Of a DNA stretch of 64,000 bases, positions 1-61,776 are shown piece by piece. The DNA lies in the NCBI GenBank assembly GCA_045643205.1, contig JAZUKI010000003.1, positions 128,001-192,000 on the forward strand, written 5' to 3'. How positions within the stretch are numbered: the first letter of the stretch is position 1; every line of letters starts with the position of its first letter. Below the pieces are notes generated by a model, which had not been told where the DNA came from, did not search any database, and was given only the letters and a program-made list of their open reading frames with translations. This stretch comes from Clostridia bacterium. Lineage in GTDB: Bacteria; Bacillota; Clostridia; TANB77; CAG-508. The position numbers and the translations under genes were made by a program.

Positions 1-70
1 AAGAATTACAGAATTAGAAATATCAGGAGATGAAAAAACAACAGAAGAAAGATAAAAAGGAGAGATACAA

Positions 71-661
71 ATGACGGTAGTTCTTAGCAGAAATTGTGCG
101 AGTGAACTTCTAGAAGTAATTAAACATTTAGATAAAGAAATACTAAAGAAAATACCAGAAAAAGTTATCGGAATGATTAAAGAAAGAAGCGATAGTTCGT
201 ACAAATTTGAATACAATGTAAAAGTTTCATATGCAGAACAAAAAATAAGTACAGAAACAAGACTTGCATTAGCAAGAATATATTTGACATATTGTTGTTC
301 AGAAGAAGAAGCGGATGATTTGATTCAAATCAATAATCATATGTATAGAAAAAAACATGCTGAAACAACTGAAATCAAACATACAATAAATTCAGCTGAT
401 ATAGTAGCACCAATTTATTCAGATGTTGTAGTAATTCCTAAACCTAAAGAAGTTCGGGGAATTGGAGATAACAAGCACTATGAAGTAAATTCAATGGTCG
501 ATGTTACAATCAACAATAATGAAAAAATAATTGTTCCAGAAAATAAATTTGTAAACAACGAACAAGTGCAATCAGTGAATAACAATCAACAAATAATCGA
601 AAAGAAAGAAAATGTTTTTACAAGATTAATTGAAAAAATAAAAAGATTATTTAAGAAATAA
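71..661 (+). CDS. hypothetical protein
   Basis: 196-aa ORF, AAGGAG RBS, followed by a terminator; basic amphipathic C-terminus (LIEKIKRLFKK). Confidence 0.8.
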   Translation: MTVVLSRNCASELLEVIKHLDKEILKKIPEKVIGMIKERSDSSYKFEYNVKVSYAEQKISTETRLALARIYLTYCCSEEEADDLIQINNHMYRKKHAETTEIKHTINSADIVAPIYSDVVVIPKPKEVRGIGDNKHYEVNSMVDVTINNNEKIIVPENKFVNNEQVQSVNNNQQIIEKKENVFTRLIEKIKRLFKK

Positions 662-667
662 AAAATT

Positions 668-707
668 AAAAGCAGGATGACGAGTTTTAGACTCCATCCT
701 GCTTTTT
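668..707. terminator. bidirectional intrinsic terminator
   Basis: AAAAGCAGGATG...CATCCTGCTTTT stem between convergent genes. Confidence 0.8.
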
Positions 708-708
708 G

Positions 709-1299
709 CTATAAGATTCCAAGAGCTGCTTCAAAAACGCCAACAACAAATACTGTTCCAAGAAATAAACCTATAAATAAAAGACATTTACCCCAAACAG
801 GTAAGCCTTTATTTTCTTGAGACTTTGCTTTTTGTTTCTTTACAGTAAAAATTTTTTCTATATTTTCATTAACATTAGTATTAAAACGTATATCATTTTT
901 AGCAACTACATAATTTAATAACAAAGGGTTAGATTCTAATGGAACTTCTTCATATGTAGATAATGTAGTTGGAATTAATTCTTTCAAAATAGTGATAGGT
1001 TCATTAATTGCTTGGCACACGTTATATTGAGTCAATCCTGAAAACTCACTGAACTTTTCTTGAGTTCCATTTGGCAACAATAAATAAAAATAGCAAACAC
1101 CATTTTGCTTATATTCATACCAAGTTGTAAATAAATTATTTTTGTATGCAAACATGAACATATAGTTTTTTATACCTTGTGAAATTGCAGTTTTAAAAAC
1201 ATCAAAGATTGTAGAAAGTGAACAAACAACACGATTAGAAGTGTTATAATCATATACAAAATTCACAATATTTCTTTGATTATATTTTAGACTCTCCAT
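709..1299 (-). CDS. hypothetical protein with C-terminal TM helix
   Basis: 196-aa ORF, AAGGAG RBS, hydrophobic C-terminus. Confidence 0.75.
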   Translation of the reverse strand: MESLKYNQRNIVNFVYDYNTSNRVVCSLSTIFDVFKTAISQGIKNYMFMFAYKNNLFTTWYEYKQNGVCYFYLLLPNGTQEKFSEFSGLTQYNVCQAINEPITILKELIPTTLSTYEEVPLESNPLLLNYVVAKNDIRFNTNVNENIEKIFTVKKQKAKSQENKGLPVWGKCLLFIGLFLGTVFVVGVFEAALGIL

Positions 1300-1435
1300 A
1301 AAAGCTCCTTCAACGGTTAGTATTTTAACCTAATTAATCTAAAAATCAAATTAATTATAGACATAATATAAAAATTTGTAAACTCATAAGTTTTGCAGAA
1401 GCAAGAAATGTTACAAAATATTAATATAATTGTTT

Positions 1436-1464
1436 TTGACTTTTATAAAGAGTTTAAATATCAT
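1436..1464 (+). promoter_or_regulatory. sigma-A promoter
   Basis: TTGACT-17 bp-TATCAT. Confidence 0.7.
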
Positions 1465-1470
1465 ATATAA

Positions 1471-2179
1471 TATAAAGAGGATTACTCTCTTTTTATACGA
1501 AGTAAAGTAATTGTGATTGAATTAGTAAAAATCTATAAAAAATATGGAGCTCGTAATTTGCAATTGTTTGTGAAAATTATAGGATAGCCCCTTATAACTT
1601 AGCAAACTCATTGTAATCGAGAAAGTTAAGGTACTAATTACCTAGTAATAATTTAGATTTTATAAAAACTGTTCGAAAGCAAAACTCTTGAAAGTATAAA
1701 AAGTGTAATATATACCAATATATTAATAGTAATATACCAAAGACAAAATAAACACTTAAAGATGGTTAATAATGAACTGATTGAAAGATTAGGTGTTTAG
1801 AGAAAACAGAAGACAAGTGAAGAAATTCATATTTAGTGTATTTTAGTATTATTTACTAAACTTCAATGCGAAGGTGCAATTCCACTTTCATAAAGGTGAA
1901 CTAATAAGAATGATGTGGTTTTTGTGAAGTTAGTTAATAAGGATGTTTTCAATGTATTATTACAAAGCGCTAAATGTAGATGTAATAGCATCACATTGTT
2001 AATGGTGATTGTAAGCATTCGATGTAAGTGGCGGAATAAAAATTGCTGAAAGAAAGAAGCTAAAGAAAGAAGAGTATTAACTTGAAGAAGTTTTTGAAGA
2101 ACTATGTTATTGATTAATCAATAAATGTTTAGAAGAAACAAAAGAGGAGATAGAAGAAAATTTTATCCTCTCTTTTTTT
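1471..2179 (+). ncRNA. candidate large structured non-coding RNA (~700 nt)
   Basis: No ORF of 60 aa or more on either strand; promoter directly upstream, terminator at the end; many hairpins with G-U pairs and GAAA tetraloops. Confidence 0.6.
2140..2179 (+). terminator. intrinsic terminator
   Basis: AAAAGAGGAGATAGAA...TTTTATCCTCTCTTTT stem with T tract. Confidence 0.7.
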
Positions 2180-2309
2180 ATTGCAAAATTTATTAAAGCA
2201 AGTGAACATTTTCTAAGAAAAACATCACTAAACATTGAACAAATAAATAATTATTATTATAATAATTAATATAGATTTTTCTAAAGAAATTAAGAGAGGT
2301 ACGAAAGAA

Positions 2310-3641
2310 ATGAATTGCCCTAAATGCGGTATATCCCTAAAGGAAGAAGATTTGTTTTGCAAAGAGTGTGGAACTAAAATCATTAAAGAAGAACCAATGC
2401 AAATACCAGTTCAAACAAATGAACAAATAACAGAAAAAATTGCAGAAGAAAATAAACAAACCAACAAACCAAATTTAATGAGACAACCAAATTATAATAA
2501 ACAAGGACAAGCAAAAATTATTGTCCATGGAGAAGATGGAAAACAAATAGACACAAACGAACTAATACCTAATCAAGAAATTCCAACAATTAAAGATGAA
2601 GAAGAAGAAAACGATGGAAGTTATCCAATGTTTGGAGATCAAATAAATCAACCTAAAAAGATCACCAAAAAAGAAGAAGCTGAAATCAAAAGAGGTACAG
2701 GAATTCAAATTACTTTAGGTATCATTGTAGTCCTTTTATTAATAATGGGAATTGTATTTACAGTTTTATTTATTCAAAAATCTAAAGAAGCAACAAAAGC
2801 ACCTAAAATGGTTGAAAAACAAATAACAGTTAAAAATTATTTAGCAACATTAGAAGGATACGAATTTGAAATACCAGAGGGATATGATTTTGAAAATAAA
2901 GAAAAAGCTGACATTTCAACAGTAGAAGAAACTTATGGTACAGGTTTTAAAACCAACCTTAACAGATATTTAAAAGTAATTCCTAAAGATGGAGATGGAG
3001 AAAAATTCTTAATAATAAAAATTGCAAATCAAACATATGCAAATGCTTCAAAACAAAAGAGTGAAATACTTCATAGATTAATTGCAAAAGATGGTGTAAG
3101 TATGGATGAAACAATTACATCAATAGACGAAGATACACAATCATATTTAAAGTTCTTAATTAAGTATAATGACAATAAAGAATTTGTAGTTCTTTCACAA
3201 GCAGATGATGAGCATATCTTTACATTTGAATTTTTCTACAAAGATGATATAAACAAAGCAAAGGCATTAGAAATTGTAAGAACTGTTTCAAACAGTATTC
3301 ATAGAGTTGAGAAAAATGATATAGAAGCAAAAGCTGATCCTAATTCATTAATAGATAGTGCATTATTTGAAGGTCTTGAAAATATTGTTGAAGATAATGC
3401 TAATACAATGATTGAAGACAATTCAGTAAACATTGTTCCTGTAGGAGGAACAGAAAACACAACAAACAATGAGACAACAGAAAATACAACTGATAGCAAT
3501 AACACAGAAAACAGTACTACAACAGAAAACGGAATAGTAGAAAATAATACAACTGAAGATAATGAAACATCAGGTAATAACACATCAGAGAGTAATACTA
3601 CAACTCAAATCGATTTAAATTTAATACCAGTTTCACAATAA
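2310..3641 (+). CDS. zinc-ribbon membrane protein
   Basis: N-terminal CPKC...CKEC ribbon, one TM helix, N/T/E-rich C-terminal tail. Confidence 0.8.
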   Translation: MNCPKCGISLKEEDLFCKECGTKIIKEEPMQIPVQTNEQITEKIAEENKQTNKPNLMRQPNYNKQGQAKIIVHGEDGKQIDTNELIPNQEIPTIKDEEEENDGSYPMFGDQINQPKKITKKEEAEIKRGTGIQITLGIIVVLLLIMGIVFTVLFIQKSKEATKAPKMVEKQITVKNYLATLEGYEFEIPEGYDFENKEKADISTVEETYGTGFKTNLNRYLKVIPKDGDGEKFLIIKIANQTYANASKQKSEILHRLIAKDGVSMDETITSIDEDTQSYLKFLIKYNDNKEFVVLSQADDEHIFTFEFFYKDDINKAKALEIVRTVSNSIHRVEKNDIEAKADPNSLIDSALFEGLENIVEDNANTMIEDNSVNIVPVGGTENTTNNETTENTTDSNNTENSTTTENGIVENNTTEDNETSGNNTSESNTTTQIDLNLIPVSQ

Positions 3642-3675
3642 ATTATAAAAATCCCAACAAAAAGAGAAACGATAA

Positions 3676-3716
3676 AATAAATGTAGACACAAAAACGTGT
3701 TTGCATTTATTTTTTT
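3676..3716 (+). terminator. intrinsic terminator
   Basis: AAATAAATGTAGACAC/GTGTTTGCATTTATTT stem with T run. Confidence 0.65.
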
Positions 3717-3844
3717 ACCATTCAAATGTTTACATAAAATCAAAAATACTATAAAAATAGCTCTTATACCCTATAAAAACTTGCACTTTGCTCAATAAAG
3801 TTATAATATAAGCACATAATTGAAATTAGCAAAAATGAGAGGTT

Positions 3845-5320
3845 ATGATGAAGAAAGATTTTAAATTTTATTTTGCCCAATTTTCAAGCAAATTGGTTTA
3901 TGGATTAATTAAAATCGTAAAAATTTTCAAGAAAAATTTAAACGGTTCTTTTTATCCGGGAAAAGTAGCAGTAAAGCTAGATAAAGATTTCTTAGGCAAA
4001 ATAGAGAAACCAGAGAAAATAATTTGTGTTACAGGTACAAATGGAAAAACAACAACAGCAAATATGTTAATAGATGCATTAGAAAAAAATGGTTTTGAAG
4101 TATTGAGCAACAAACTTGGATCAAACGTTCAAGCTGGTATTGCCAGTGCATTAGCAACAGGTGCAACAATAACAGGTAAAACAAAATATGACATAGCAGT
4201 ATTTGAAGTTGATGAAAGAAGTTCTATAAAGGTTTATCCATATATAAATCCAACTATAATTCTTTGTACAAACCTTTTCAGAGATTCAATGAAAAGAAAT
4301 GCACATCCAGAATTTATATTAGATATTATTAATAAAGGACTTGAAGGCAACAAAGATACAAAAATTATTTTAAATGCAGATGATTTAATTTCATGCCAAA
4401 TAGCACCTGCAAATAAAAACAAAGTTTATTTTGGAATGGATGCATTAACAAGTGACACAACAGAATGTCATAACATAGTAAATGATTTTGCTAATTGTCC
4501 AAGATGCGGTTCAAAACTTAAATATGAATATTTAAAATATCACCACATTGGAAAAGCATATTGCCCAAACTGTGAATTCAAGTCACCTGAACCAAAGTAT
4601 TTAGGAACAAATTTTGATTTCACAAAGATGAAATATTCAATGATAGAAACATTAAAAGATGGCAAGAAACAAACAGAATACAATTTAGTTTCAGACAATG
4701 TAGTAAATATATATAACGAAATTGCAGCAGTAGCATGCTTAAAAGAATTTGGATTATCAGAGATTGAAATCAGAAAAGCATTTGATGATTATAAATTAGT
4801 TGAAAGCAGATACACAGAAGAAAACTATAATGGCTTAATAATCAAAACAATATTAGCAAAAGGACAAAATGCAGTAGCATGTTCAAGAGTATTTGATTAT
4901 ATTAAAAACGATTCTGGTAACAAAGCAGTAATGCTAAATTTAGATGATTTCTTTGATGCAAAAACATCATCAGAAAACATATGTTGGTTATATGATACAG
5001 ATTATGAACTATTAAACGATCCAAGTATCAAACAAATTTGCATTGGCGGAAAACGTAGAATGGATCATTACATGAGATGTTTAATAGCAGGTATTCCAGC
5101 TGATAAATTCACAATATGTGAAAGTGAATATGATGAACCAGCATTATTAGACTTAAATAAAATAGATAAAGTATTTGTTTTATATGATGTTTATACAAGA
5201 CCAATGGCACTAAAAATAAAAGCAGGAATTGAAAGAAAAGTAGATAACATTATAGAGAAACTAGAAAAAAGTCATGTAAAAATTTCTGGTAGTAACGATA
5301 AAGATTTAACAGCTAAATAA
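3845..5320 (+). CDS. murT: lipid II amidotransferase ligase subunit MurT (Mur ligase + DUF1727)
   Basis: VTGTNGKTTT P-loop, FEVDE, NLFRD, CPRC...CPNC zinc finger, WLYD motif; directly upstream of gatD. Confidence 0.9.
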   Translation: MMKKDFKFYFAQFSSKLVYGLIKIVKIFKKNLNGSFYPGKVAVKLDKDFLGKIEKPEKIICVTGTNGKTTTANMLIDALEKNGFEVLSNKLGSNVQAGIASALATGATITGKTKYDIAVFEVDERSSIKVYPYINPTIILCTNLFRDSMKRNAHPEFILDIINKGLEGNKDTKIILNADDLISCQIAPANKNKVYFGMDALTSDTTECHNIVNDFANCPRCGSKLKYEYLKYHHIGKAYCPNCEFKSPEPKYLGTNFDFTKMKYSMIETLKDGKKQTEYNLVSDNVVNIYNEIAAVACLKEFGLSEIEIRKAFDDYKLVESRYTEENYNGLIIKTILAKGQNAVACSRVFDYIKNDSGNKAVMLNLDDFFDAKTSSENICWLYDTDYELLNDPSIKQICIGGKRRMDHYMRCLIAGIPADKFTICESEYDEPALLDLNKIDKVFVLYDVYTRPMALKIKAGIERKVDNIIEKLEKSHVKISGSNDKDLTAK

Positions 5321-5341
5321 ACTAAAAAATAGGAGAAGCAA

Positions 5342-6067
5342 ATGGTTGAAGAAAATTTAAAAATTGAAGTATTGTTTCCTGAAACTGCAAATCTATACGG
5401 TGACACACACAATATGGTATATTTAAAAAAATGCCTTCCAAAAGCAGAATTTATAGAAACAAGTTTGGCAGATGAACCATATTTTGCAGAAAATGATGTA
5501 AGCATGATTTATATGGGTTCAATGAAAGAAAGTACTCAAGAAAAAGTTATAGAAAAATTATCAAAACATAGAAATAGAATAATTGAACTAATAAAAAACA
5601 ATGTAGTATTTCTAATGACAGGAAATGCTATGGAAGTATTTGAAAAACATATTGAGTTAGAAGATGGAACACAAATAAAAGCATTAAACATATTTGATTT
5701 ATATGCAAAAAGACAAATGATGAATAGATATCATGAAATGCAAATTGGTGAATTCAAAGATAAATTAGATATAGTTGGATATAAAGCATCATTTAGTATG
5801 ACATATGGAGATAATTCAGAAGGTTATTTTATGAAAGTAGTCAGAGGAAGAGGAAATAACGAAGAATCTGAATTTGAAGGAATTCGTCAAAACAATTTCT
5901 TTGGAACATATTATATAGGGCCACTATTAGTTCTTAATCCATTGTTTACAAAGTACTTAATAAAATTATTAGGAATTAAAGGAAAGAAATTAGCATTTGA
6001 AGAAACAGCAATCGAAGCATATGAATTAAAATTAAACGAATTTTCAAATCCAAAAATAGAAGGATAA
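5342..6067 (+). CDS. gatD: GatD-like glutamine amidotransferase subunit with degenerate catalytic residues
   Basis: NLYGD, GxGNN...EG, GTYxxGPLL motifs; catalytic Cys and His positions substituted. Confidence 0.85.
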   Translation: MVEENLKIEVLFPETANLYGDTHNMVYLKKCLPKAEFIETSLADEPYFAENDVSMIYMGSMKESTQEKVIEKLSKHRNRIIELIKNNVVFLMTGNAMEVFEKHIELEDGTQIKALNIFDLYAKRQMMNRYHEMQIGEFKDKLDIVGYKASFSMTYGDNSEGYFMKVVRGRGNNEESEFEGIRQNNFFGTYYIGPLLVLNPLFTKYLIKLLGIKGKKLAFEETAIEAYELKLNEFSNPKIEG

Positions 6068-22084: not shown

Positions 22085-22160
22085 TGGTCGAGGCGACAGG
22101 GATCGAACCTGCGACCTCATGGTCCCAAACCACGCGCGCTACCAACTGCGCTACGCCTCG
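22085..22160 (-). tRNA. tRNA-Pro(TGG)
   Basis: Reverse complement CGAGGCG...TTTGGGA anticodon loop...GTTCGAT...CGCCTCGACCA; 76-nt cloverleaf with encoded CCA. Confidence 0.97.
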
Positions 22161-45748: not shown

Positions 45749-47320
45749 ATGGCAGACAATATACAAGGTCAACCAGTTCAAGGTCAACCAGTTCAAAATC
45801 AACCAGTTCAAAATCAACCAATTCAAGGTCAACCTATCCAAAGTCAACCAATCCAACCATCATTCGATAATTCAGTTACAACAAAAGAAGATGGACAAAC
45901 AAAATGTCCTCAATGTGGATCAACTGATATTTCAGTTAACGCAAAAAAAGGTGTTTTAAGATGTAACTATTGTAGACATGAGTTTCAACCAGAAGTAGCT
46001 GCTGGAATGAATGGAGATATTACAAAATTACAAGGAATCTGGGTTGGAAAAGGCGCATGTGATATTAAAAAAGGTGAACAATCAAAAGAAATGTTAACAT
46101 TAAAATGTACAAGCTGTGGAGCAGAAGTTGTTATCGATACAAAAGAATCAACACAAGCAAGATGCCACTGGTGCAGAAACATGTTATCAATTCAAAACCA
46201 AATTCCAAATGGCGCAGTACCAGACGCTGTTTTGCCATTTAAACTTACAAAGCAACAAGCTCAACAAAAAATTGAAGAATTTGTTGGAAAGAGAAAATTC
46301 TTTGCACATCCTAAATTCAAGGAAGAATTCACAACAGAAAATATTATGGGTGTTTACATGCCTTACATGAGCATTAACGCAAATACACACGTAAGACTTG
46401 AAGGTTTAGGAGAAATAAAAACAAGACAATACACAGTTAAAAGAGGAGATTCATATCATACTTATTATGATGCAGATGAATATCGTGTTGGAAGAGAATA
46501 CGACGCTGCAATCAAAGGTTTGACAATCGAATCAAACTCACAAAGAATGTCAAATGACAAAGGCGAAACAAACAACATCATCAATGCAATCATGCCATTT
46601 GATATGGAGAACTGCGTAACATGGGACGCAAACTATTTACATGGATATACATCAGAAAGACGTGATACAAACGTTAATCAACTTAAAGAATATGGCGATG
46701 AAAAAATTAGAGGTGTTGCTAGATATACAATAAATGACACATTAGCAAAATATGATAGAGGTGTTTCTTGGAAGAGCCAAAACATTGATATTATTGGAGA
46801 ACAATGGAGTGCAGTATATCTACCAGTATGGTTATATAGTTACTATGAGAACAAAGGAAATGGTCAAGGAACAAAGCACTACGTTGCAGTAAACGCACGT
46901 ACACAAGAAACAATGGGATCAGTTCCAGTTTATATGCCATTATTATTAGGAATCTCAGCAATTATTGAGATTATAGGTATCATTCTATTCGCTATATTAT
47001 TAGGAGTAAAGAACGGATACAAATTCAGCTGGTTATTCTTATTACCAGGAATTATTTATGGACTATCTATCTATGGAAAATACAGAAACAAGAATGCAAA
47101 ACACGTTTATGAATTAGAAACATTACAACAAAAGAATAACATTAAAGGATACGATACATTTAATAGACATCGCAAAGGCCTAAGCAATTCAATGATAGAA
47201 GGTTATAACAACAAAGCAATAAGCACATCAACATCAGAAAAAGTATTAAACTCAGTAACTGGAGGAAATGTACTAGGAACAGTTGCAAACATTGGATTAA
47301 ACAATATATTACATAGATAA
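45749..47320 (+). CDS. zinc-ribbon membrane protein (YdjG-like)
   Basis: Four CxxC pairs, PDAVLPFK, GVYMPY, YLPVW, VNARTQE motifs; two C-terminal TM helices. Confidence 0.75.
   Translation: MADNIQGQPVQGQPVQNQPVQNQPIQGQPIQSQPIQPSFDNSVTTKEDGQTKCPQCGSTDISVNAKKGVLRCNYCRHEFQPEVAAGMNGDITKLQGIWVGKGACDIKKGEQSKEMLTLKCTSCGAEVVIDTKESTQARCHWCRNMLSIQNQIPNGAVPDAVLPFKLTKQQAQQKIEEFVGKRKFFAHPKFKEEFTTENIMGVYMPYMSINANTHVRLEGLGEIKTRQYTVKRGDSYHTYYDADEYRVGREYDAAIKGLTIESNSQRMSNDKGETNNIINAIMPFDMENCVTWDANYLHGYTSERRDTNVNQLKEYGDEKIRGVARYTINDTLAKYDRGVSWKSQNIDIIGEQWSAVYLPVWLYSYYENKGNGQGTKHYVAVNARTQETMGSVPVYMPLLLGISAIIEIIGIILFAILLGVKNGYKFSWLFLLPGIIYGLSIYGKYRNKNAKHVYELETLQQKNNIKGYDTFNRHRKGLSNSMIEGYNNKAISTSTSEKVLNSVTGGNVLGTVANIGLNNILHR
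45764..45853 (+). repeat. six 15-bp tandem coding repeats (Q-G/N/S-Q-P-V/I)
   Basis: CAAGGTCAACCAGTT and variants in tandem. Confidence 0.85.
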
Positions 47321-60120: not shown

Positions 60121-60780
60121 AGGAATTATTTATTGCATGACAACAATTGTACCAGGTTTAGTGAAGATAGGAAAAACTGGAAGTGATAATTTTGAACAAC
60201 GTATGTACAATTTAGAAAGAAATGGATATGTTAATGTAGTTGGCTTAAAAAGAAGATTTGCAATAGAAGTAGAAGATTATGATGAGAAAGAAGTACTTAT
60301 ACATGAATTATTTTGTAAAAGTAATGTACAAAACACAGAGTTGTTTGCTATAGATGTCAAACTTGTAGTACAATTATTATCTTCATTAGAAGGAAAGCAA
60401 ATTTTCCCTAAAACTATAACTAAAGAAGAAGTATTTGATATTGCTATAGATGAAAGACAAAAAGATTTTAATAAAAACAATAGAATGTTAATACCAGATG
60501 GAAATTATTATATATCTGAAAAAAATATTAAAGCTACTATGAAAGTAGAAAATGGCAAATTTATTGTATTAAAAGGAAGCACTTGCCTAGAATGTAATAA
60601 AGATTGGATTCCAGAAGCAAGAAGAATAGCAAAAATTGAAAATGGAATATTAATAGAGGATATAGAATGTAAATCTCCTAGTACAGCAGGTTGGATAGTT
60701 TTAGAAAATGCTAATAATGATGGTTAACATGGAAAACTAAAGATGGAAAGAGTATAGATATATTTAGAAATAATAAGTAG
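60113..60780 (+). pseudogene. T5orf172-type GIY-YIG + DUF4357 protein, probably inactivated
   Basis: AAG at the expected start (60113) before AKGIIYCMTT; GLVKIGKT motif; 1-nt frameshift at ~60719 separates the WLTWKTKDG tail. Confidence 0.7.
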
Positions 60781-60800
60781 TTAAAATAAAGAGCATCATT

Positions 60801-61010
60801 ATGGAAAGAATAATATCAAATAAAATTCAATGTAAACATTGTGGTGATATAATTGAATCTAAAAGTATTCATAGTTTTGTAAAATGTAAACGTGGATGTT
60901 GTAGTGTTGATGGAGGACATTATCATTTAAGTCGTTCATATTTTCATAGCCCAGAAGAAGATTTTATAGATTTAAGTGAAGTAGCGGATGATGGTGTAGA
61001 AGAAGTTTAA
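60801..61010 (+). CDS. small Cys/His-rich zinc-binding protein
   Basis: CKHCGDIIES..H..CKRGCCSVDGG pattern, of a type common in mobile elements. Confidence 0.7.
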   Translation: MERIISNKIQCKHCGDIIESKSIHSFVKCKRGCCSVDGGHYHLSRSYFHSPEEDFIDLSEVADDGVEEV

Positions 61011-61155
61011 GTGAATAAATTTAAGGTTAAAGATATATTATAATAATTAAAAAAATGTGAGATTTTAGTTATATAAAATCGTAATTGGTACCAAATGTTG
61101 TAAAAAACAATAAAATAATGTATAATATAATAGGTTTAGTGAAAGTAGGAATAAT

Positions 61156-61776
61156 ATGTTAGCTGAATTGGATATATTATTAGATTCTATAAGGGAACAA
61201 TATAATCAATTATATGCAGAATGGAAAAAAAGTAATTTATATGTTCCATTACACCAAAAAAAGAATCTAGTAAAAGATATAAAAAATAATAATGAAATTC
61301 TAAATGCTATATTAGACTATAGATTGTTTTTGAATGAAAATCACTTAGATTTAAAAATGACATTTGATAGTTTAAATTTAAAGAGTGAAGTAAATAGTAG
61401 AGTAAAAGCACAAAACTCAATTGAATTTAAAATAAACAATTATATGACTGCTAAACATGAATATGGTGAAGTTGCAATAAATAAATGTTTTAATGATTTA
61501 TATGGAATAAGAATAATTTTTGAAGATAATGTTGAATATAATGATATAAAGAATTTCATTGATGTAAAATACAAGGGAAAGCTAAAATGTTATGATGCAT
61601 CTAAAGGAGACTATGTAGCAACTCATATATATTTTAAAAAAGACAATTATAGTTTTCAGTGGGAACTACAAATATGGGATAAATCACATTATAAATCTAA
61701 TATTATTTCACATGAACAGTATAAACAAGGTTATACAAAATGGGAAGAAGAAAATAAAGGAGGTGAATCATTTTGA
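61156..61776 (+). CDS. RelA/SpoT-type small alarmone synthetase (toxSAS-like toxin)
   Basis: SRVK, NDLYGIRII, YVATH, ELQIW synthetase motifs; no hydrolase domain. Confidence 0.8.
   Translation: MLAELDILLDSIREQYNQLYAEWKKSNLYVPLHQKKNLVKDIKNNNEILNAILDYRLFLNENHLDLKMTFDSLNLKSEVNSRVKAQNSIEFKINNYMTAKHEYGEVAINKCFNDLYGIRIIFEDNVEYNDIKNFIDVKYKGKLKCYDASKGDYVATHIYFKKDNYSFQWELQIWDKSHYKSNIISHEQYKQGYTKWEEENKGGESF

Follow-up and report, generated by a model that had tools for sequence, protein, structure and literature searches.

What does a 1.0-Mb Clostridia genome hold in the longest stretch of its sequence that is free of open reading frames? The window analysed here (64,000 nt, positions 128,001 to 192,000 of contig JAZUKI010000003.1 in assembly GCA_045643205.1; coordinates below are those of the window) contains such a gap at positions 1300-2309, where 1010 nt pass without any ORF of at least 60 amino acids. 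Of the 716 ORF-free gaps in the whole assembly, no other is as long or even reaches 1000 nt; the runner-up internal gap measures 616 nt, and other long ORF-free gaps of the assembly are occupied by RNase P RNA, tmRNA, 6S RNA and OLE RNA. The gap, which an earlier note on this DNA had described as about 1 kb long, is bordered on the left by the divergent gene orfB (709-1299, minus strand) and on the right by a gene for a zinc-ribbon membrane protein (2310-3641, plus strand). Here we report a computational analysis of this locus and its homologues. The best overall explanation, to which we assign a probability of roughly 0.7, is that positions 1471-2179 of the plus strand, hereafter the element, encode a structured non-coding RNA (ncRNA) of about 0.71 kb as a stand-alone gene. 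This supports the core of the earlier note, which had read the region as a stand-alone structured non-coding unit of about 700 nt and had considered that it might represent a new class.

The analysis relies on five distinct sequences of the element, namely those of the source window, of one congeneric genome (G018; the source genome is G000) and of three metagenome contigs, with pairwise identities of 77-92%. A BLAST search across 61 genomes returned one true match, in G018, with 78% identity over 784 nt, while the matches in 19 other genomes cover stretches of 27-71 nt only and were taken as chance. Scanning of metagenomes with an orfB alignment produced 265 candidate stretches, of which four were confirmed, two of these being identical to each other. 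The sequences of the element originate from animal-gut data. A common gene order is found at all five loci, where genes for a radical SAM enzyme, orf187, orfA and orfB (minus strand) are followed by the element and the zinc-ribbon gene, with MurT coming next wherever the contig extends far enough. With a P-type ATPase, MetK, the radical SAM enzyme, MurT and GatD encoded in the neighbourhood, the context is an ordinary chromosomal one.

No coding signal is detectable in the element. Reading the gap with genetic code table 4 opened no convincing frame, and the mismatches between the source genome and its congener are distributed over the three phases as 57/56/54, unlike the flanking genes, which show the usual excess of third-position mismatches in the same comparison. 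The sole ORF that is intact in all five homologues encodes 12 amino acids (1866-1904); it has no Shine-Dalgarno sequence and sits within conserved hairpins. A Pfam scan of nine stop-free frames of the element gave zero matches, and a HMMER search with the longest stop-free frame (84 amino acids) against 1.84 billion representative proteins found no relatives. A decayed protein gene, which the earlier note had named as a refuting outcome, was rejected on the Pfam and HMMER results together with the small-ORF check and the phase of the mismatches. The identity of the element between the two genomes (77%) lies above that of the third codon positions of the flanking genes (57-67%), and by this sequence comparison the element is conserved above the level of synonymous sites.

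Transcription signals had been proposed from the source sequence alone at both borders of the element, and both proved to be present and conserved. A sigma-70-type promoter (TTGACT-17 nt-TATCAT, positions 1436-1464, plus strand) agrees with the consensus at 10 of 12 positions. By itself this match is weak, because such sites are common in this A/T-rich DNA (the same scan gave 20 promoter-like sites vs 12.7 +/- 2.9 in shuffled sequences), and it is conservation that supports the promoter, with the -35 hexamer (TTGACT or TTGACA) and the -10 hexamer retained in five of five homologues. Running into the -35 hexamer is an A/T-rich block of 36 nt (1405-1440, plus strand) that is identical in all five homologues; it resembles an UP element or an operator, and the invariance of such a block ahead of the promoter suggests strong or regulated transcription. 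At the opposite border, an intrinsic terminator (2140-2179, plus strand) consists of a 15-pair hairpin, numbered helix 20, and a U-run. Its helix is paired in 100% of the cells of the five-sequence alignment, its fold z ranges from -2.7 to -4.3 and its positions 2160-2178 are invariant, though a consensus terminator scan called no terminators, the hairpin at 2140-2176 included. Transcription would start at the conserved promoter, near position 1471, and end at the conserved terminator, giving a predicted plus-strand RNA of about 709 nt (1471-2179) without a conserved ORF.

The position of these signals bears on the possibility that the element acts in cis, as a leader, attenuator or insulator either for the zinc-ribbon gene with MurT/GatD or for the divergent orfB. 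Such a role would fit the same placement between orfB and the zinc-ribbon gene at five of five loci, the narrow distribution common to the RNA, orfA, orfB and the zinc-ribbon protein, and the resemblance of the 5' hairpin with its U5 tract to a small terminator. We nevertheless consider a cis-acting element unlikely, because the unit is closed by a strong conserved terminator and the downstream gene has its own separate, conserved promoter (TTGAAC-17-TATAAT at 2235), with a 43-nt indel in the spacer that lies between the two. Moreover, orfB is transcribed in the opposite direction from a conserved promoter of its own, and the element gave no match to a riboswitch, T-box or leader model.

A stand-alone RNA gene would be expected to yield a transcript, and RNA-library data cover part of the element. 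One metatranscriptome contig of 440 nt (depth 12.4) corresponds to positions 1664-2103 with one differing letter; it comes from one run of one study, gives neither strand, ends nor level, and may include DNA carry-over, since an RNA library can carry DNA. The limits of this contig were not taken as ends of the RNA, because a DNA contig of run X3 also stops at 2106. In the same RNA run (X2) no high-identity contig covers the flanking genes within positions 1-6000 of the window, an absence of cover that does not indicate silence; the remaining X2 pieces are 34-64 nt long with 3-12 differing letters, and runs X5 and X6 contained next to none of the searched words. The element is probably expressed as RNA, and from the data at hand we infer the start, end, strand and stability of its transcript.

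As to the strand, the bias of G-U pairing that had been pointed out from a few stems of the source sequence extends to the whole alignment, in which the plus strand has 106 G-U cells vs 5 A-C cells. The consensus energy is -101.3 on the plus strand and -77.5 on the minus strand, and the plus strand is favoured because of the G-U excess, the lower energy and the orientation of both promoter and terminator. The z-score of the minus-strand consensus fold is equally strong (-8.5).

Conserved secondary structure with compensatory changes is present in the element across its five related sequences. Folded individually, the five homologues gave z-scores of -3.35, -6.32, -4.35, -6.47 and -5.36, with none of 40 dinucleotide shuffles as stable in any case. 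As the homologues are related members of one narrow clade, shuffle controls overstate significance. For the source sequence the value was -1.98 with 20 shuffles and -3.35 with 40. Eight coding control segments from the same genomes ranged from +1.0 to -2.24, and the genome's own OLE RNA gave -3.9 and -2.7 in the same test. Broken down by region, Domain I reaches -3.1 to -5.4 and Domain III -3.7 to -5.3, the centre is weaker (-1.6 to -3.3), and the purine-rich tail, at -0.4 to +1.3, is not structured. The consensus fold of the five-sequence alignment has a z-score of -7.9 (0 of 50 column shuffles), and the flanking genes range from -0.1 to -4.4. The four refutation criteria of the earlier note all spoke for its reading: an RNA-library contig spans part of the element, covarying pairs are present among the homologues, each of the five folds better than its dinucleotide shuffles, and no decayed protein gene is detectable.

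The consensus structure is paired in 95.7% of cells, and 15 of its 175 pairs are changed on both sides, compared with 6.2 +/- 1.8 in 500 shuffles, none of which reached that number, and 2-4 with slid partners. A stronger indication is that a like architecture for the Domain I core and Domain III emerges from each of the five sequences folded individually. In the Domain I core (30 pairs), 95.3% of cells pair vs 34-42% with slid partners, and five pairs are changed on both sides vs 1.5 +/- 1.1 in shuffles. In Domain III (46 pairs), 93.0% of cells pair and seven pairs (13 cells) are changed on both sides, including five of the ten pairs of its basal helix; across the two domains, slid partners pair in 34-58% of cells. 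The figures for the two domains come from covariance-model alignments that were fitted to the structure and hence lean towards it, and the structures tested were derived from the same five related sequences.

Such figures have to be weighed against the possibility that the region is non-functional DNA, be it what is left of a decayed gene, of a mobile element, or a mere spacer, whose apparent signal stems from close kinship and A/T-rich composition. In keeping with this, the element, at 77% identity, is conserved to the same degree as the flanking orphan genes and much less than OLE, its structure conservation index (0.64) does not stand out from that of orfA (0.68), and many alternative A-U/G-U stems fit the alignment equally well. 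We regard non-functional DNA as very unlikely, however, because conservation exceeds that of third codon positions, the fold beats dinucleotide shuffles in all five homologues, unlike that of the eight coding controls, and the compensatory changes concentrate in helices that are predicted from each sequence individually. In addition, no remnant of a protein gene or mobile element was found, and the sequence is present in an RNA library. That the element is a real structured ncRNA gene we judge to be likely.

From 5' to 3', the predicted plus-strand RNA would be composed of a 5' hairpin, Domain I, a central region, Domain III with its GCGC-containing loop, an unstructured tail and the terminator. 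The 5'-end hairpin (helix 1; AGAG-GAUUA-CUCU, positions 1476-1488, then U5) does not vary and pairs in 100% of cells, with invariance found over positions 1482-1495, and its probable role is protection of the 5' end. Domain I (1489-1703) is closed by a 10-bp long-range helix, 1489-1498/1694-1703, and by a second helix, 1503-1508/1684-1690; within this domain, the helix numbered 2 in the consensus structure is paired in 100% of cells, with one compensatory and two wobble changes. Its core (1550-1643) is built of the stacked helices CUCG/CGAG and UUGCAA/UUGUAA and a middle helix, and it is capped by the hairpin 1577-1597 with the conserved loop AUAGCCC, after which comes the hairpin 1629-1643. 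An A/U hairpin of nine pairs (helix 8, 1705-1726) is invariant and hence uninformative on pairing. Next to it lies the longest invariant block of the RNA, the 32-nt stretch UAGUAAUAUACCAAAGACAAAAUAAACACUUA (1727-1758), which is mostly unpaired.

The hairpin at 1777-1792 varies in length. Its 6 bp are capped by a GAAA loop in the source genome; a self-complementary insert of 13-14 nt lengthens it in three homologues, and in homologue L034 it has a different 4-nt loop. The central three-hairpin unit (1826-1900) comprises an outer helix, 1826-1835/1891-1900, and the hairpins 1843-1859 and 1870-1889 (GAAGGUG/CACUUUC), and it includes helices 12, 13 and 15 of the consensus structure; helix 15 is paired in 100% of cells, and helix 12 in 88%, with one exchange of A-U to G-C. 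Domain III (1916-2045) folds into one irregular hairpin, about 130 nt long, that has an apical hairpin at 1974-1996 and an invariant internal loop with GCGCUAAAU. The purine-rich tail (2046-2139) has no stable fold and includes the conserved tract UGAAAGAGAGAAACUAAAGAAA as well as an A/U palindrome (2110-2121).

Several of these helices had been written out in the earlier note, and the comparison of homologues changes that list. All eight of its helices are present in the source sequence, and those at 1577-1597, 1629-1643, 1777-1792 and 1842-1860 are kept in the homologues. The pairing of TAAACAC at 1749 with GTGTTTA at 1793 is ambiguous, both words being invariant and a second possible partner lying at 2126. 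The stem at 1817-1830 folds in the source genome only, the one at 1883/1898 is broken in the other four homologues, and the one at 1958/1981 is not kept. For these three, better alternative pairings exist, one of which, GAAGGUG (1870) with CACUUUC (1883), pairs in 100% of cells. GAAA tetraloops, once taken as a sign of selection on RNA structure, occur in the source genome only and lose this meaning.

The invariant, mostly unpaired stretch at 1727-1758 raises the question of whether the RNA could be a base-pairing regulator or a sponge acting in trans, with this stretch and the purine-rich tail binding mRNAs or a protein, and perhaps with a second function through the 12-amino-acid ORF. Consistent with this idea, the longest invariant blocks are unpaired and the small ORF is intact in all five homologues. 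We find such a regulator improbable, given that a search of the genome for a paralogue or an antisense target found complementarity of 14-22 nt at best, which is at chance level, and that no Hfq gene was found in the genome. The small ORF, as described above, lacks a Shine-Dalgarno sequence and is buried in conserved hairpins, and a length of 0.7 kb with two large folded domains exceeds the needs of a small regulatory RNA.

The taxonomic range of the element is narrow. Its distribution is also that of orfA, orfB and the zinc-ribbon protein; the last two occur in two of 44 genomes of the genus, and one additional genus genome has a weak match to the zinc-ribbon protein alone. A covariance model of one part of the RNA (R1), run with strict filters, found no match in 150 genomes of the family and none in 150 genomes of the order, and a model of another part (R2) found two of 40 genus genomes, namely the source genome and G018. 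A 19-mer inside positions 1727-1758 occurs in nine stretches of a species genome collection, one of which is the G018 contig, the other eight belonging to unrelated phyla. So far, the element is confined to one small clade.

A phage or plasmid origin was dismissed on the combined results of blastn, the 19-mer and model R1. The blastn search against phage records and plasmids gave zero matches to the element, the 19-mer from 1727-1758 is absent among viral contigs, and ten viral matches to a degenerate 17-mer were set aside, the best viral score of model R1 having an E-value of 0.9. Between the source genome and its congener the OLE RNA is 93.5% identical, and the element, at 77%, is close to the identity of the adjoining orphan protein genes; on this comparison the sequence of the element changes at a far higher pace than that of a classic ornate RNA.

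Does the element belong to a described RNA family? We searched the 4227 covariance models of Rfam 15 at gathering scores and, permissively, at E up to 10 for the region 1250-2350 and up to 5 for the four other loci. At gathering scores, the whole window contains one tRNA only (22088-22160). The region 1250-2350 gave five unrelated weak rows at E up to 10, the best with E 1.8, and in the other four homologues no row lies within the element. Among the models without a match are those of riboswitches, T-boxes, leaders, ribozymes and group I and II introns, including group-II-D1D4-1 (RF01998). The Rfam check advised earlier has thus returned no family that matches the element.

The housekeeping RNAs of this genome are accounted for elsewhere, each above its cut-off: RNase P RNA (type A) at C8:48717-49065, tmRNA at C10:143407-143764, SRP RNA at C3:51323-51418 and 6S RNA at C10:104369-104551. 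OLE RNA (RF01071, cut-off 50 bits) has its sole match in the genome at C3:193465-194029, with 305.6 bits, 63 kb away from the element, and no OLE row appears at the five element loci. A usual neighbour of OLE is its partner gene, oapA. The ROOL model (RF03087, cut-off 99.1 bits) found no match in the genome, and none in the control genomes either, and no ROOL row appeared in the permissive scans of the region 1250-2350 and the four other loci. Rfam should include a GOLLD model, and no row of that name was seen in the scans of the region 1250-2350 (E up to 10) and the four loci (E up to 5).

The earlier note had offered a divergent member of ROOL, GOLLD or OLE, or else a new class. The first of these options is not supported, as in none of the five homologues does an Rfam model overlap the element. 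A wider version of it would hold that the element is a very divergent OLE, ROOL, GOLLD, raiA or group II intron RNA missed by covariance models in an A/T-rich lineage, and it can point to the same size class and to the frequency of OLE in this Bacillota gut lineage, where 18 of 40 genus genomes have it. We consider this highly improbable, because none of these families appears in the Rfam scans of the five homologues even at the permissive limits, the OLE model finds a separate locus in both the source genome and its congener, the element has no sequence likeness to the OLE RNA of the genome, and there is neither a tRNA nor a phage context. Covariance-model searches do work in this lineage, since the OLE model finds those 18 genomes. 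A full-text word search of the literature, which cannot find a sequence, returned no description of such an RNA. On the evidence of sequence and model searches, the element is a new RNA family, outside the described ones.

Returning to the stand-alone structured RNA, its parts allow a tentative view of what it might do. Its most likely mode of action, in our view, is that of a stable structural RNA acting in trans, which would agree with the invariant A/T-rich block ahead of the promoter, a hairpin at either end, large domains that fold independently and unpaired stretches that do not vary. Such an RNA could serve as a scaffold for at least one protein or assemble with itself, as OLE and ROOL do, and the hairpins at its two ends would shield it from exonucleases. 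A specific role in scaffolding or assembly is, to us, a possible but doubtful part of the proposal. The neighbour proteins provide no functional lead. Three clade-specific proteins adjoin the element, two of them predicted to be membrane-anchored, and no RNA-binding fold was seen in the models of the neighbour proteins. The predicted structure of OrfA is poor (pLDDT 45), whereas that of OrfB reaches a pLDDT of 70 in one of five models, and its Foldseek search gave weak rows only (E of at least 0.05), to papain-like folds.

According to passages of PMC12286853, OLE, ROOL and GOLLD form unexpected RNA-only assemblies. In a more specific and speculative form of the proposal, the element might be a third kind of self-assembling ornate RNA, joining into homodimers or oligomers by way of two G/C-rich palindromes that do not vary: AGCGCU, in the Domain III internal loop, and GAGCUC, at the Domain I base. 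Such words are rare in an RNA whose C content is 9%. Together with the three clade-specific proteins, it would function as a particle, either RNA-only or membrane-tethered. We give this version little credence at present.

Very few bacterial ncRNAs combine a length of more than 500 nt with a complex fold. In passages of the 2017 survey (PMC5737381), only ribosomal RNAs, GOLLD and group II introns are said to exceed ROOL in length and complexity. A further class of about 0.7 kb, unrelated to the known ones and present beside OLE in one 1-Mb gut genome, would lengthen the short list of large bacterial RNAs. If the present reading is true, large RNAs can be of recent origin and limited to a small clade, and as such be missed by surveys that demand a wide distribution; if the self-assembly reading is also true, a reduced gut lineage would carry two unrelated large structural RNAs. 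The narrow range and fast drift of the element limit its general importance for now. Overall, we conclude that it is probably a real and expressed structured ncRNA gene that represents a new family in a small clade.

Comparison with the known ornate RNAs places the element at different distances from each of them. GOLLD, described in passages of PMC12286853 as often longer than 800 nt, without a known function and linked to phages and tRNA islands, resembles the element in being a very large bacterial ncRNA with a better conserved and a more variable part, and it differs by this phage and tRNA-island link, which the element lacks. The corresponding description of ROOL (PMC5737381) gives a mean length of 581 nt, a first sighting in rumen metagenomes, few highly conserved nucleotides, no known function, a frequent location near tRNAs and in prophages, and a range that spans three phyla; very high abundance is reported as attainable for ROOL in passages of PMC12286853. 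The element likewise comes from animal-gut data and evolves fast, but it belongs to one small clade and an ordinary chromosomal context, without a phage or plasmid match and without a tRNA gene within 6 kb, none being present in positions 1-6000 of the window. OLE, which PMC9723947 and PMC12054373 present as a large multi-domain ncRNA without an established biochemical function, differs in its separate locus, in its lack of sequence likeness to the element and in its range among the 40 genus genomes (18 vs 2). In other respects OLE is alike: both OLE (about 600 nt) and the element are large, stand-alone, multi-domain ncRNAs of anaerobic Bacillota, each with its own transcription unit, and in the same genome both have similar fold z-scores.

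At the edge of the RNA promoter, an A/T-rich block of 36 nt (window positions 1405-1440), located 5' of the -35 hexamer and extending into it, is invariant in all five homologues of the RNA and is conserved above nearly every part of the RNA itself. This block may serve as an UP element; alternatively, it may be bound by a regulator that the RNA promoter has in common with the divergent promoter of orfB. Within the RNA, a 20-nt direct repeat (1794-1813 and 2126-2145, 85% identity) supplies the invariant TAAACAC at 1749 with two mutually exclusive pairing partners, through which the RNA could adopt alternative conformations. An A-to-G difference at position 1815 is common to contigs assembled from two DNA runs and an RNA run, and is a strain variant rather than RNA editing.

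The three protein-coding genes beside the RNA (71-3641), namely orfA, orfB and the gene for a zinc-ribbon membrane protein, are orphans that share a narrow distribution. The predicted structure of orfB comprises an alpha/beta domain and a C-terminal membrane helix, and the only fold matches of this model were weak ones to papain-like proteases (E-values of 0.05 and above). By-eye reading of residues 1-140 of the window's copy revealed no histidine.

Across all 64 kb of the window, a single tRNA (22088-22160, minus strand) was the sole Rfam match to exceed its gathering score. Elsewhere in the genome (G000), we observed seven more internal ORF-free gaps of 500-600 nt, at 60588-61183, 77939-78451 and 113601-114100 on the window's contig (C3), 78375-78911 on contig C6, and 46219-46780, 80299-80803 and 162420-162951 on contig C10. 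They are not accounted for by the RNAs located in this genome (RNase P, tmRNA, SRP, 6S and OLE RNA), and may be sites of other non-coding RNAs or leaders.

The OLE RNA of this gut genome of 1 Mb lies on C3 at 193465-194029 (plus strand), ~1.4 kb past the window's 3' end, and is a clear match to the RF01071 model (305.6 bits, E-value 1.9e-88); RF01071 is likewise represented in 18 of 40 genomes of the genus, including the congeneric genome G018, whose OLE RNA is 93.5% identical to that of G000.
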